Source: Acidobacteriaceae bacterium (GTDB lineage: Bacteria > Acidobacteriota > Terriglobia > Terriglobales > Acidobacteriaceae). Taken from it: a stretch of 24,147 bases of DNA. Both the position numbers and the translations under genes were made by a program. The notes beneath the pieces are model-generated. The model did no database searches. It saw nothing but the letters and a program-made list of their open reading frames with translations, and was not told the origin of the DNA. The DNA is taken from positions 1 to 24,147 of the forward strand of contig DASSKX010000344.1 of the NCBI GenBank assembly GCA_035689925.1, in the 5' to 3' direction. Below, in pieces: positions 10,555 through 14,738 of the stretch (its first letter is position 1; each line of letters opens with the position of its first letter).

Positions 10555-11952
10555 ATGACCAGTCAGGAAAAGGTTCTCATCGTCGAAGACGAGCCCCACG
10601 CGTTGTCTGGCCTGGCTGAGCTGGTCTCCGGCTGGGGATACCGCACCGAGACAGCGCGGGATGGGCTGGAAGCGCTGGAAAAGGTGACTGCCTGGCAGCC
10701 GGGCATCATCGTCTCCGATCTGAAGATGCCGCGTATGGACGGCCTCGAACTGCTCGCGCGCCTCGGCGAAACCAGCGAGAAGGTCGCCGTGATCATGCTG
10801 ACGGCGCAGGGTTCCATCGAAGCTGCTGTTGAGGCGATGAAAAACGGCGCCTACGACTTTATCCAGAAGCCCGTGGATCCAACCCGGCTGCGGGCGATTC
10901 TGACCAACGCCGCGCGCCAGCGCGAGACGGACCGTGAGCTGGAAGTGACGCGGCGCAAGCTGCGCGAGACCGGCGTCCTCGGCTCGCTGGTCGGCGCCTC
11001 GAAGAAAATGCAGGAGATTTTCACGCTGATCGAGCGCGTCGCCACCAGCAACGTCAGCGTGCTCATCACCGGCGAGAGCGGCACCGGCAAGGAACTGGTT
11101 GCGCGCACGCTCCACGACCTGAGCCCGCGGCGGATGAAGCCGTTCGTGGCCGTCAATTGCGCCGCCATTCCCGAGACGCTGATCGAAAGCGAGATCTTCG
11201 GCCACGAGAAGGGCGCCTTCACCGGGGCCATAGAGCGCCGCGCCGGCTGCTTTGAGCTGGCAGAAGAAGGCACGCTGCTGCTGGACGAGATCGGCGAGAT
11301 GCCTGTGGCGACTCAGGCGAAGCTGCTGCGCGTCCTCGAAGACCGCAAGCTGCGCCGGCTGGGCAGCAAGGTGGAATCGCCGGTCGACGTGCGCGTGCTG
11401 GCTGCAACGAATAAAGATCCGGAGCAGGCGGTCTCCGGCGGACAGCTTCGCGGCGATCTGTACTACCGCCTCAACGTCTTCAACATTCATATGCCTCCGC
11501 TGCGCGACCACAAGGAAGACATTCCCGCCATCGCGGAGTCGATGATCGGCGACATGAATGAGAAGCACGGCCGCAAGGTCACGGGTGTCGATAACGAGAT
11601 GCTCGCGCGCCTCATGGCGCATGACTGGCCGGGCAATGTCCGCGAACTGCGCAACACCATCGAGCGCGCGGTTGTCCTCTGCGGCGAGGGCCAGCTGCAG
11701 TCCCGGCACCTGCCTCCGGGCTTCGGCACGAAGGCGGCGCGGCCCGCCAGCGAGGTTCCCGCCAACGCCATTCAGCTCGAGGTGGGCGCCACCGTCGATG
11801 ACGCGGAGCGCATGCTCATCTTCAAGACGCTGGAATCGACGCACAATAACAAGACCCGGGCGGCCGAAATCCTGGGCATCAGTCTGAAGACTTTACACAA
11901 CAAACTGAGAGAGTACGGCACGGCTGCCACCGCCAGCGCGCTCGAAGATTAA
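10555..11952 (+). CDS. NtrC-family sigma54-dependent response regulator (REC-AAA+-HTH Fis)
   Basis: LIVEDE, SDLKMPRMDG (phospho-Asp), GESGTGKE, GAFTGA, LLLDEIGE, WPGNVRELRN, NKTRAAEILGISLKTLHNKL. Confidence 0.95.
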   Translation: MTSQEKVLIVEDEPHALSGLAELVSGWGYRTETARDGLEALEKVTAWQPGIIVSDLKMPRMDGLELLARLGETSEKVAVIMLTAQGSIEAAVEAMKNGAYDFIQKPVDPTRLRAILTNAARQRETDRELEVTRRKLRETGVLGSLVGASKKMQEIFTLIERVATSNVSVLITGESGTGKELVARTLHDLSPRRMKPFVAVNCAAIPETLIESEIFGHEKGAFTGAIERRAGCFELAEEGTLLLDEIGEMPVATQAKLLRVLEDRKLRRLGSKVESPVDVRVLAATNKDPEQAVSGGQLRGDLYYRLNVFNIHMPPLRDHKEDIPAIAESMIGDMNEKHGRKVTGVDNEMLARLMAHDWPGNVRELRNTIERAVVLCGEGQLQSRHLPPGFGTKAARPASEVPANAIQLEVGATVDDAERMLIFKTLESTHNNKTRAAEILGISLKTLHNKLREYGTAATASALED

Positions 11953-12090
11953 GGTCGGCGGCGCAGCGATTGTGGTTCAATAGCCATTCAGGCCTGCTGG
12001 ATCCGGGCCCTGCTGCCCTCGCTGTCTTTCTGCCCTATGGTCTTTTATAACTGAGCTCGGTAAGCAGGCTCAGAGCACCGATAAGGATCC

Positions 12091-14109
12091 ATGCGGCTGA
12101 AGACCAAACTCGTCCTTGCGATCACCAGCCTTGTCCTGGTTGTGGTGGTGGTCTTCTCGTGGATCTGGATGAGTTGGCTGCTGCAGCAGCACATCGAACA
12201 ATCCTTCACCGCAATCGATACCCTGGCCCATCAGGTGGCCAACGATGTCACCCGCGCGCTCGACACGGGCCTGAAGGGGCGCCAGTTCGATCCGCACGAT
12301 CCGGCGGCGGTGCGGCAGGCGGTCGCCGAGACGCTGCGCGAGAACCCCGACGTCGTCTACCGGCTCAACTCCATCGTTGAATACTCGCCGACCGTGCTGG
12401 ACGTCTCGATCGCCGACCACAACGGCCGTTCCCTGATCAGCGCGCCCGATGCGACGCAGGACGATCAGGTGCTGCCGGGCCGCCCCGACTTCGCCAGTCT
12501 GCGCAAGCAGTCGCTGATCACTACGCTGCGCATCGTCTTCGGTCGCCCGCAGGTGTACAACGTCACGCTGGGTCTGGACCTGAACAACCAGCCCTTCCTG
12601 ACCATTCGCATCGGCATCCGCACCACGTTCTTGCAGAATGCGCTGCGCCCGTGGCTGATCAAGTCCGGATGGTTCATCGGGCTGGCAATGCTGATCTCGA
12701 TTGTCGTCGCGGCGCTGCTGGCCAATCTGGCGCTGCAGCCGATTGAGGAGATCAGCAAACGGCTCGATTTGCTGACCACGCAGGAAGCCCTGGCCGAGGC
12801 GCAAAGCACCGGGGATCTGGCGCCGCCGGAACCCGCCGCCGAGCCCGCAGGAACGCTGGCCGCCCTGACGGAACCGATCCTCGGCCGTGGCGACGACGCT
12901 GTGGCCAAGGTCTCCGGCAAGATCGAGCGACTCGGCCAGCGTATCCGCAACGTCGAGGAGGTCTTCAGCGCGCTGCGAGAGAACCTCGACCAGATCCTTT
13001 CGAATCTGCAGGACGGCATGATGCTCTTCACCCGCGATGCGCGCGCGGTGCTGGTCTCCAGCTCGGTGGAACGTTTTCTGAACATCAGCCGCGATCGCAT
13101 CTTCGGAGCCGAGGTGCGGGAGATCTTCGACCGCAGCACGCGCCTCGGCCGGACGGTGCGGGATGCCTTCGAAGGCGGCATGTCGATCGTGCAGGAAGAG
13201 GTGACCACGGAGACGGGGCGGCGCGTCGAGGTCTCGCTCGACTTCATCCACGACACGCACTCGCGGGACCGGCACGCACTGGGCGCGCTGCTCACCTTCC
13301 ACGACCTCGAGTCGGTGCGGGAGATCGAGTCGGAGCTGGAAGTCTCCCGGCGCATGGCCGCCATCGGCCGCCTCACCGCGGGCGTCGGCCACGAGGTGAA
13401 GAACCCCATCAACGCCATCGTCGTGCATCTGGAGCTGCTGCGGAACAAGATGCAGGCGGGCGACGACGCCACGCGCCACCTGGACATCATCCAGAGCGAG
13501 ATCCGGCGGCTCGACCGCGTGGTGCAGACGCTGGTCGACTTCTCGCGCCCGGTCGAGCTGCAGCTGACCGACTGCGATCTGCGCGAGGTCGTCTCCAGCG
13601 TGATGTCCCTGGCCTCGGCGGAGATGGAAATGCGCGGCATCCGCGTGGAGACCAGCATGCCGGAGCGGCCGGTGCTGTGCCGCCTGGACACTGACCTGCT
13701 CAAGCAGGCGCTGCTGAACGTGGTGCTGAACGGGGCCCAGGCGATGGCGACCGGCGGACTGCTCGAGGTGAACCTGCTGCTGGGATCGAAGTGGGCCTCC
13801 ATCCGCGTGCGGGACCACGGCACGGGCATTCCCGATGAGATACGGCCGCGCATTTTCGACCTGTACTTCACGACCAAGAAGGAAGGCAGCGGCATCGGGT
13901 TGGCGATGACCTACCGTATCCTGCAGCTGCATCATGGCCTCATTGACGTAGAATCGAAGCCTGGGAGCGGAACTTCATTCGTACTGCGGCTCCCGCTGAT
14001 TTCTGCCGGTTCGGGACCACGGATCGCTCCGGAGCTGCCGGAGCACGCAGTCCCCGGCGAGCTTGCTCGCCAGGGCGGTGACGCCCAGCCAGAAAGGTCC
14101 GGACCATGA
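12091..14109 (+). CDS. Membrane sensor histidine kinase (TM-periplasmic-TM-HAMP-PAS-HisKA-HATPase)
   Basis: Two TM helices, PAS-like LDQILSNLQDGMMLF, H-box GHEVKNPINAI, N-box LNVVLNGAQA, G1 DHGTGI, F-box IFDLYFTTK, G2 GSGIGL. Confidence 0.93.
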   Translation: MRLKTKLVLAITSLVLVVVVVFSWIWMSWLLQQHIEQSFTAIDTLAHQVANDVTRALDTGLKGRQFDPHDPAAVRQAVAETLRENPDVVYRLNSIVEYSPTVLDVSIADHNGRSLISAPDATQDDQVLPGRPDFASLRKQSLITTLRIVFGRPQVYNVTLGLDLNNQPFLTIRIGIRTTFLQNALRPWLIKSGWFIGLAMLISIVVAALLANLALQPIEEISKRLDLLTTQEALAEAQSTGDLAPPEPAAEPAGTLAALTEPILGRGDDAVAKVSGKIERLGQRIRNVEEVFSALRENLDQILSNLQDGMMLFTRDARAVLVSSSVERFLNISRDRIFGAEVREIFDRSTRLGRTVRDAFEGGMSIVQEEVTTETGRRVEVSLDFIHDTHSRDRHALGALLTFHDLESVREIESELEVSRRMAAIGRLTAGVGHEVKNPINAIVVHLELLRNKMQAGDDATRHLDIIQSEIRRLDRVVQTLVDFSRPVELQLTDCDLREVVSSVMSLASAEMEMRGIRVETSMPERPVLCRLDTDLLKQALLNVVLNGAQAMATGGLLEVNLLLGSKWASIRVRDHGTGIPDEIRPRIFDLYFTTKKEGSGIGLAMTYRILQLHHGLIDVESKPGSGTSFVLRLPLISAGSGPRIAPELPEHAVPGELARQGGDAQPERSGP

Positions 14110-14738
14110 GATCCGGGTGGAGGATTGCGGCGTTTGGGTTGTTGCTCGCCATGGTGGCGGGCTGTAACCATCCGCTGCTGCGGACGCAGAGGACCATACC
14201 CCCGCCTCCTCCGCAGACCGAGCCCTCGAAACCTCCGACGCAAATGGCTGAACTGATGCCCGCGATGCCGGAGCTGCCGGTCGTCGTGGACGAACGGCCC
14301 ATCCGTCTCGATGCCTCAGTGCCCGAGCAGCAAGCGCCTCCGCCGCCCGCGGAACATCGCCGGATCCTGCGCCGCAAGCCGCACAACACAACGCCCGAAC
14401 CGGCGCAGGAGACCGCCAAAGCGCCCACTCCGGCTCCGCCGAATCCCGCGGTCGCCAGCGGTCCGCCACCGGACGAATCGCCGATCGGCCAGCTGTCGCC
14501 GGCGACCAGCAACGCCAATACCGCCGACCGCCAGGCGCTCACCGATGAGCTGAACACCACCGAGAAGACGCTGAACGGCATTCATCGTTCGCTCAGCTCG
14601 GAGGAGCGCAAGACCGCGGAGCTGATCCGCACCTTCATCGGCAAGGCGCGGCAGGCGCTGAAAACCGACGACCTGGACGGGGCGAAGAACTACTCGACGA
14701 AGGCAAAGATCCTGCTCGACGAACTGGTCAAGTCCTAA
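14106..14738 (+). CDS. Pro-rich lipoprotein with C-terminal helical domain, function unknown
   Basis: ATGA overlap with the kinase stop; lipobox VAG-C20; long Pro-rich linker; amphipathic helices at the C-terminus. Confidence 0.8.
   Translation: MRSGWRIAAFGLLLAMVAGCNHPLLRTQRTIPPPPPQTEPSKPPTQMAELMPAMPELPVVVDERPIRLDASVPEQQAPPPPAEHRRILRRKPHNTTPEPAQETAKAPTPAPPNPAVASGPPPDESPIGQLSPATSNANTADRQALTDELNTTEKTLNGIHRSLSSEERKTAELIRTFIGKARQALKTDDLDGAKNYSTKAKILLDELVKS

Follow-up and report, generated by a model that had tools for sequence, protein, structure and literature searches.

A proline-rich, usually lipid-anchored protein encoded with a predicted PDC-type histidine kinase and a sigma-54-dependent regulator across Acidobacteriota

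Does a small proline-rich lipoprotein, whose gene directly follows that of a sensor histidine kinase, act on this kinase, or does it only share its operon? The question is raised by a locus in a stretch of 24,147 nucleotides from an Acidobacteriaceae bacterium (GenBank assembly GCA_035689925.1, contig DASSKX010000344.1), hereafter called the window, where an NtrC-type regulator, a membrane histidine kinase and the lipoprotein, which we refer to as the accessory protein, are encoded one after the other on one strand. This arrangement had been noticed in a first-pass annotation of the DNA, which proposed an envelope-sensing system analogous to QseE/QseG/QseF, and it is borne out by the open reading frames (ORFs) and their Pfam domains. 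Based on our findings we consider it fairly probable (roughly 0.65) that the accessory protein acts as a periplasmic helper of the kinase in a three-part module conserved across Acidobacteriota. Acidobacteriota are among the most abundant soil bacteria, and to our knowledge almost none of their signalling has been studied; likewise, we know of only few systems, e.g. QseG-QseE, in which accessory control of a histidine kinase is understood structurally. A large accessory family that has no database model may thus provide a clean and testable case of such control.

Linkage of the accessory gene to the kinase gene

The accessory family follows the same kinase across Acidobacteriota, also in other classes of the phylum. 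In the genus of the window the accessory gene is present in 24/24 genomes, and in all of the 12 loci the kinase gene lies directly upstream; the same holds for 19/19 loci of a first set from other genera of the order. The arrangement regulator-kinase-accessory recurs in 18 out of the 20 more distant loci examined within the order, the two exceptions being L044, where neither gene adjoins the accessory gene, and L050, a kinase-accessory pair without an adjacent regulator gene. Within the phylum, accessory matches were obtained in 45 of 301 genomes sampled; 25 of these 45 belong to families other than the window's, and 18 of the 25 were examined as loci. In these 18 true matches from other orders or classes the kinase gene always adjoins the accessory gene (18/18), on the same strand in 17 and with the regulator gene adjacent in 17; two further matches (L097 and L098) were discarded as weak false positives, i.e. 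large TPR-like proteins. The synteny across order and phylum hence supports the three-gene module described earlier and shows it to be conserved.

On direct reading of the sequence the ATG of the accessory gene overlaps the stop codon of the kinase gene, just as annotated before, and a Shine-Dalgarno-like GAAAGG is located 8 nt upstream of this ATG. As the same overlap of -4 nt recurs in 12/12 loci of the genus and in 13/19 loci from other genera of the order, it is not a matter of chance, and it is consistent with translational coupling of the two genes. Between the regulator and kinase genes lie 138 nt, in which a search for a terminator-like site found none, and the conserved gene order suggests that all three genes are co-transcribed across this gap.

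Co-occurrence was assessed in a sample of 151 genomes of the order, on which a profile of the accessory protein and a profile of the kinase sensor domain were run alike. The module is single-copy and nearly universal in the order, with the kinase in 139/151 genomes. Of 122 genomes of the window's family, not counting the window's own, 110 contain kinase and accessory protein and 12, all of them 98-100% complete, contain neither, while the match in the sole genome that apparently had the accessory protein only (G115) is confined to the signal peptide and the Pro-rich part. Orthologous kinases matched with E-values of 1e-115 to 1e-146, and the ‘negative’ genomes gave only generic matches to the kinase core (E 2e-39 or weaker). 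In the sister family the kinase was detected in 28/28 genomes and the accessory protein, by the first profile, in 16/28. When five of the negatives were searched again with a profile of the C-terminal domain, the accessory protein was found in four, beside the kinase in G028, G037 and G057 and on a separate short contig in G063; in the fifth genome the kinase gene is cut by the contig end. These tallies include unpublished genomes (G112, G061, G040 and G029 in the accessory search, and additionally G038, G034, G035 and G036 in the kinase search), without which the numbers are 124/147 for the accessory protein, 131/143 for the kinase and, for the family, 109 genomes with both versus 12 with neither; loci, alignment rows and sequences used here all come from the other genomes.

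In G091 and G433 the orthologue of the regulator is encoded on another contig or far off while the kinase and accessory genes are still adjacent, implying that the link between kinase and accessory protein is at least as tight as that between kinase and regulator. Moreover, in a mirror-tree comparison of 35 triples the distances of the accessory C-terminal domain follow those of the kinase sensor domain best (r 0.605); the partial correlation of accessory protein and sensor given the regulator is 0.305, a value reached by 0/2000 permutations, and that of accessory protein and regulator given the sensor is 0.118. This lends weak support to a link between the accessory protein and the sensor domain.

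Architecture of the three proteins

Judged by its signal peptide (N-terminus MRSGWRIAAFGLLLAMVAG-C20) and a lipobox, VAG-C, that fits [LVI][ASTVI][GAS]C, the accessory protein is a bacterial lipoprotein, predicted to be lipidated at C20, which is invariant in alignment A1 together with G19 (coordinates of all features are given in Table 1). AlphaFold2, run on a 56-sequence alignment, predicts no regular structure for the Pro-rich residues 21-136 and three helices for residues 137-209 (pLDDT 95-98). Lipobox, Pro-rich linker and helical C-terminal domain are all present as first described. The bundle ends in the signature D(L/V)xGA..L..KAK.LL.EL (alignments A1, A2 and A4), where K199 and A200 are invariant and D189, A193, L203 and L207 nearly so. 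Conservation extends into the Pro-rich stretch, namely to a Pro-rich block shortly past the Cys, to a basic patch and to the motif SPIGQLS at residues 125-131 (14478-14498); distant classes retain a PPPPPPR[VLI] block 10-25 residues past the Cys. From these sequences the family can be described as exported proteins of ~180-260 residues with a Pro-rich middle and a C-terminal three-helix bundle, encoded after a PDC-type kinase.

Scans of the accessory protein with Pfam and NCBIfam gave nothing significant, and Pfam returned no consistent family for 56 members, nine of which match DUF1771 (best E 6e-4). A search of 5.8 billion proteins yielded 88 relatives, all ‘hypothetical’ and from Acidobacteriaceae-type metagenome bins; a single-protein search for related loci found only metagenome-assembled genomes of uncultured ‘Acidobacteriaceae bacterium’, and the neighbours in the ESM Atlas are exclusively unnamed Acidobacteriota clusters. 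With a profile of the C-terminal 92 residues, run against 1.84 billion representatives of clusters at 50% identity, 3008 clusters were obtained at E<=1e-3 and 1333 at E<=1e-10. Among the 150 clusters listed nearly all proteins have 80-280 residues, with the domain at the very C-terminus where the length permits judging. The two top-scoring representatives, P0092 (141 residues) and P0093 (280 residues), match the profile in two separate stretches and seem to have the three-helix domain duplicated in tandem.

A Foldseek search of the PDB with the C-terminal domain gave nothing at E<=1e-3. VIA-align listed 4fzo, an engineered uranyl-binding bundle (Z 12.7), DUF357 (Z 11.1) and the Pseudomonas DUF4398 lipoprotein PA2901 (Z 8.0), none of which we accept as a specific fold relative, as these are generic three-helix bundles with Z-scores within helical-bundle noise. 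A sequence-profile search of the PDB with the accessory protein produced only matches to lipoprotein signal peptides and Pro-rich regions, among them marginal ones to RcsF (E 6.4) and LptM (E 0.008). No paper on the three-gene system turned up in the literature library searched. Together with the absence of a Pfam or NCBIfam model and the label ‘hypothetical’ in every source, this is in line with the earlier remark that the system is apparently uncharacterised: the arrangement, i.e. a two-component system with an accessory envelope protein, is known, its parts are new, and the accessory family is undescribed.

In the kinase, PAS, HisKA and HATPase_c domains (Pfam) follow two transmembrane (TM) helices that flank a periplasmic domain of ~150 residues. 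An AlphaFold2 model of residues 1-300, based on a 20-sequence alignment and with pLDDT 89-96 across residues 11-200, consists of a long helix comprising TM1 and a periplasmic part, two short helices, a 4-5-strand sheet and TM2 running into a long helix. With the periplasmic part Foldseek ranked the WalK extracellular domain best (7dud and 4ywz; E 1e-4 to 7e-4), ahead of CitA and KinD, and 9a5d is also among the WalK-related matches; the sensor is predicted to be a WalK-like PDC/sCache domain. As the accessory protein is exported and this PDC-like domain is modelled with confidence on the periplasmic side, both are expected in the same compartment. TM2 is followed by a HAMP-like segment (P-L-x-x-I ... 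DEYG-x-V, alignment A3). The genus-specific insertion of ~25 residues in this linker is Ala/Pro/Glu-rich, with DDAVA in place of the DEYG of relatives and pLDDT <50 in the model, and it probably explains why Pfam misses the HAMP domain. The overall layout (TM, PDC, TM, HAMP-like linker, PAS, DHp, CA) would thus be that of WalK, coupled to a sigma-54 regulator. A named orthologue cannot be assigned to the kinase, which reached no NCBIfam cut-off.

The regulator contains REC, Sigma54_activat, AAA_lid and HTH_8 domains (PF00072, PF00158, PF25601 and PF02954), all above the Pfam cut-off (E 4e-71 for Sigma54_activat, and 7e-30 and 7e-14), and its translation shows a Walker A motif, GESGTGKE, and the GAFTGA motif. 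By its domains it is an NtrC-family sigma-54 enhancer-binding response regulator, and sigma-54 (RpoN) is encoded in the same genome (Sigma54_DBD match on contig C296 of G000, 196 bits, above the cut-off). Orthologues across the phylum are 51-72% identical; their alignment with the long ORF begins only at its residue ~15-24, which makes ATG 10555 the likely start, as had been assumed. Assignment to a named orthologue (AtoC, NtrC, ZraR, GlrR or others) is rejected, all NCBIfam equivalog scores being below the cut-off: AtoC, NtrC and ZraR rank at the top, AtoC being best with 434 bits against a cut-off of 714, and GlrR reaches 352 against 763. The 8-mer ACCGTGAT occurs twice at 10510-10533, with the copies 16 nt apart and 20-45 nt upstream of the ATG of the regulator gene; it could be a direct repeat bound by the regulator, or be due to chance (roughly 1 in 10 for a 120-nt region).

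Table 1. Features of the three-gene module and its flanks (positions in the window; residues of the regulator are numbered in the ORF open from 10501)
Feature	Position	Strand	Remarks
Three-gene module	10555-14738	+	NtrC-type regulator, membrane histidine kinase, 210-residue lipoprotein; ORFs open over 10501-14738
NtrC-type sigma-54-dependent response regulator	10555-11952	+	ORF open from 10501, likely start ATG 10555
REC domain	10573-10902	+	residues 25-134
AAA+ sigma-54 interaction domain	10987-11490	+	residues 163-330; contains GAFTGA
HTH_8	11794-11916	+	residues 432-472
Regulator-kinase spacer	11953-12090	+	138 nt; 18-264 nt in relatives
Sensor histidine kinase	12091-14109	+	672 residues; Pfam, AlphaFold2, Foldseek, alignment A3
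Kinase TM1			residues ~5-30
Kinase periplasmic domain, predicted PDC/sCache-like	12184-12624	+	residues ~32-178; AlphaFold2, Foldseek
Kinase TM2			residues ~190-214; HAMP-like linker follows
Genus-specific insertion in HAMP-like linker	12811-12891	+	residues 241-267, ~25 residues; alignment A3
Kinase PAS	12982-13317	+	residues 298-409; Pfam
Kinase HisKA	13366-13548	+	residues 426-486; Pfam
Kinase HATPase_c	13687-13998	+	residues 533-636; Pfam
ATGA overlap of kinase stop and lipoprotein start	14106-14109	+	kinase end CCA-TGA, lipoprotein ATG at 14106
Signal peptide and lipobox	14106-14165	+	M-V-A-G-C20; translation
Pro-rich stretch, predicted disordered	14166-14513	+	residues 21-136, 27% Pro
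C-terminal three-helix bundle (predicted) and stop codon	14514-14738	+	helices 137-157, 165-186, 190-209; conserved family core
G+C-rich hairpin, bidirectional terminator-like	14929-14955	.	flanked by A-run and T-run; in 319-nt spacer
M20 peptidase gene	7811-9433		upstream flank
Probable MNT antitoxin ORF	9274-9564		just upstream of HepT-like toxin gene
HepT-like toxin gene	9561-9923		upstream of regulator gene
VanZ-like gene	9926-10438	-	immediately upstream of regulator gene
NAD kinase gene (nadK)	15058-15921		downstream flank, convergent with module
MacB-like permease gene			downstream flank, with nadK

How the accessory protein may act

We propose that the accessory protein, translated from the mRNA that also encodes the kinase by virtue of the start/stop overlap, would be exported into the compartment of the PDC domain, where in most lineages its N-terminal lipid would anchor it, lipid and Pro-rich stretch holding the protein at a membrane. 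The three-helix head would then bind the periplasmic sensor domain, to which the SPIGQLS and poly-Pro motifs perhaps contribute, and this binding, be it activating or inhibiting, would set or gate the activity of the kinase (autokinase or phosphatase) in response to some putative signal, upon which the regulator would switch on sigma-54 promoters elsewhere in the genome. That an accessory lipoprotein acts on the sensor domain of a kinase is established for QseG and QseE, where the C-terminal helices of QseG contact the periplasmic domain of the kinase (PMC6075780, PMC12691602). By analogy, this contact may be equivalent to the role we ascribe to the conserved C-terminal bundle.

Most of the order and of the phylum have the lipobox, and its Cys is missing from eight loci (L033, L034, L035 and L044-L048). 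In alignment A3 the kinases of these eight loci appear to be close relatives. The signal peptide of their accessory homologues is hydrophobic and of the ordinary kind, in several cases with an A-x-A-type cleavage site, and the homologues keep the low-complexity middle and the C-terminal bundle, beside the same kinase except in L044. Since this clade retains linker and C-terminal domain without the Cys, the family does not depend on the lipid anchor, and, judged from these sequences, the conserved function belongs to the exported C-terminal domain plus linker and not to the tether. The natural split into anchored and anchor-free forms provides a ready-made test of whether tethering matters. Equally, the +2 residue (14166-14168), of which the first-pass annotation had noted that it is not Asp, is indeed Asn in the window; however, the 93%-identical orthologue P0004 has Asp at this position, as does L028, and owing to this switch the residue says little on sorting. 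If the +2 rule of E. coli applied, near-identical orthologues would go to different membranes, suggesting that the rule is either inapplicable or uninformative here.

In the specific version favoured by the first-pass annotation, which is conceivable, albeit doubtful, the protein is an outer-membrane lipoprotein whose Pro-rich stretch spans the periplasm in the manner of RcsF, LpoB or QseG and reports the status of the outer membrane or envelope to the kinase in the inner membrane. The widespread lipobox fits this possibility, as does the length of the stretch, since ~115 disordered Pro-rich residues could reach ~30 nm or more when extended, i.e. more than the width of a typical periplasm; additionally, one family member matches the TonB polyproline model, and QseG spans the periplasm while bound to QseE (PMC12691602). 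In the anchor-free clade, however, lipid anchoring is evidently dispensable beside the same kinase, the Asn/Asp switch at +2 makes an outer-membrane placement unreadable from sequence, and the conserved motifs suggest that the linker is more than a spacer. A bolder version, which we regard as improbable, makes the accessory protein the sensing element itself: a lipid-anchored poly-proline ‘ruler’ would present the three-helix head to the PDC domain only when envelope geometry or integrity changes, so that cues such as the distance between outer and inner membrane, the state of the peptidoglycan or lipoprotein trafficking would turn on the sigma-54 regulon. If true, Acidobacteriota would thereby have their first defined envelope stress response, and it would arise from a family without known relatives.

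Several points speak against a helper role. Conserved adjacency is equally expected of a co-regulated but mechanistically independent envelope protein, and adjacency and co-occurrence by themselves would look the same for a modulator and for a passenger that is co-expressed. The accessory gene of G143 (L099:15328-15981:+) is unlinked, being located ~8.5 kb from the kinase gene on the opposite strand, and in L091 the two genes are convergent. The mirror-tree signal may arise partly from fast evolution of both the sensor domain and the accessory protein, and the predicted bundle, having no specific structural relative, gives no functional clue. The small protein might thus not act on the kinase at all and be an envelope protein, structural or binding peptidoglycan or outer-membrane proteins, that rides in the operon, or an output that follows its expression; some structural envelope proteins, too, are Pro-rich lipoproteins with a small helical end, and the DUF4398 protein PA2901 is a weak structural match (Z 8.0). 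We nevertheless judge this unlikely: a passenger would be expected to persist in at least some kinase-less genomes, whereas the 12 near-complete genomes of the family that have lost the kinase have all lost the accessory protein too. Moreover, the overlap of start and stop codon is conserved, and the linkage to the kinase is tighter than that to the regulator.

It is hardly probable, finally, that the C-terminal domain is a periplasmic chaperone-inhibitor of the CpxP/ZraP/Spy type that keeps the kinase off until titrated by misfolded envelope proteins or metals, for, although the domain is all-helical and periplasmic, faintly matches Metal_resist (PF13801; E 0.042), exists in an untethered form in the lipid-free clade and has a counterpart in ZraPSR, where such a protein is coupled with a sigma-54 regulator, the match is far under the cut-off (14.4 bits versus 29.2), none of 56 family members matches PF13801 at E<=0.01 or LTXXQ, neither fold search listed CpxP, Spy or ZraP for what is predicted to be a compact three-helix bundle, and zraP is a divergent sigma-54 target, in contrast to the kinase-coupled gene here, for which no sigma-54 promoter was found. 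A role as periplasmic helper of the kinase therefore remains our preferred explanation; its design is familiar and its conservation striking, and its practical value, modest for now, depends on knowledge of the signal and of the sigma-54 regulon.

Known systems, promoters and neighbouring DNA

The module resembles QseE/QseG/QseF (GlrK/YfhG/GlrR) of Enterobacteriaceae and other Pseudomonadota in that it combines the genes for a membrane kinase, an NtrC-type sigma-54 regulator and a small helical lipoprotein. Homology of the accessory protein to QseG is rejected, as hhalign of profile A2 against E. coli K-12 QseG gave a probability of 4.4%, from the signal peptide only. QseG forms a globular, all-alpha dimer, and its N-terminal loop is short, whereas the protein described here would have ~115 disordered Pro-rich residues followed by a three-helix bundle of 73 residues. 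Similarly, the periplasmic sensor of QseE is a four-helix bundle (PMC12691602), in contrast to the PDC domain, HAMP-like linker and PAS domain predicted here. The gene order is kinase-lipoprotein-regulator in QseEGF and regulator-kinase-lipoprotein in the window, and the sigma-54-driven small RNA (sRNA) gene glmY adjoins the former, whereas no conserved adjacent sRNA and no convincing sigma-54 promoter accompany the latter. The proposed analogy hence holds at the level of architecture and fails for homology, predicted sensor fold, gene order and adjacent sRNA.

Gene order and kinase architecture are closer to WalRK-YycHI and MtrAB-LpqB than to QseEGF. WalR/WalK/YycH/YycI of Firmicutes share the order regulator, kinase, extracytoplasmic accessory protein and a kinase built of TM, PDC, TM, HAMP, PAS, DHp and CA, and the extracellular domain of WalK is the best structural match of the modelled kinase sensor (4ywz, 7dud). 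WalR is of the OmpR type, unlike the sigma-54 activator found here, and YycH and YycI, which are TM-anchored, beta-rich and act through transmembrane helices, are unlike the accessory protein; Pfam gave no YycH/YycI match in the accessory protein (P0003) or in 56 family members. In MtrA/MtrB/LpqB of Actinobacteria the order regulator, kinase, lipoprotein is likewise conserved over the whole phylum, and LpqB is believed to act as a modulator of the kinase on the extracytoplasmic side. However, LpqB is a large globular lipoprotein (~580 residues) that is not homologous to the accessory protein, and MtrA is of the OmpR type. RcsF and LpoA/LpoB are lipoproteins that have a long disordered Pro-rich N-terminus and contact a partner across the periplasm through a small folded C-terminal domain; the accessory protein has a similar build, but these proteins differ in their partners (IgaA and outer-membrane proteins, penicillin-binding proteins) and in their folds. 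In ZraP/ZraS/ZraR and CpxP/CpxA a small helical periplasmic protein modulates the sensor kinase, with ZraR being a sigma-54 activator. The anchor-free accessory clade recalls these modulators, to which the accessory protein shows no significant family match and from which it differs in predicted fold, gene arrangement and regulation.

The earlier statement that the window has no convincing -24/-12 promoter is confirmed: seven sites match with <=2 mismatches, versus 11.4 expected by chance, and none is convincing. Moreover, no sigma-54 site was found at a conserved position in 19 related loci, and no consistent one in 14 relatives between the regulator gene and a divergent gene for an OmpA-family protein. 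The regulon of the regulator would thus lie elsewhere than at this locus. In these 14 relatives the gene for the OmpA-family outer-membrane protein (beta-barrel, PKD and OmpA domains; e.g. L033:94-2067:-) occupies the position that the HepT-like and VanZ-like genes have in the window. In 13 loci of other classes (among L081-L096, e.g. L084:6729-9821:+) the accessory gene is followed on the same strand by a gene for a class II (B12-dependent) ribonucleotide reductase, probably as plain synteny. We do not take nadK, the OmpA-family protein or the class II ribonucleotide reductase as clues to the regulon, as their positions look like plain synteny.

The structured RNA candidate that the first-pass annotation had placed next to the module cannot be upheld as one of its components. 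The lipoprotein gene is followed, ahead of the convergent nadK, by a spacer of 319 nt (14739-15057) that among the genomes sampled occurs in the window's genome only. In the closest relative, L002 (kinase 99% and lipoprotein 92% identical), similarity ends exactly at the stop codon of the lipoprotein gene, and in most relatives the stop codons of the lipoprotein and nadK genes are just 5-64 nt apart. The content of the spacer is therefore not a conserved partner, and the analogy to GlmY fails; neither Rfam nor ARAGORN gave a match in the window. The spacer looks like a recent insertion. It contains two copies of CAAGCACT (14841 and 14870) as well as the hairpin listed in Table 1, which probably ends the operon here. 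At the same position in a congener (L009:2131-2959 of G020) there is an insertion of 829 nt in which a ~100-nt repeat with a hairpin-forming core (…CCCATTCAAGCCTTCTTTTGGCTTGAGTGGGAT…) occurs at least four times; it looks like a REP/MITE-like array.

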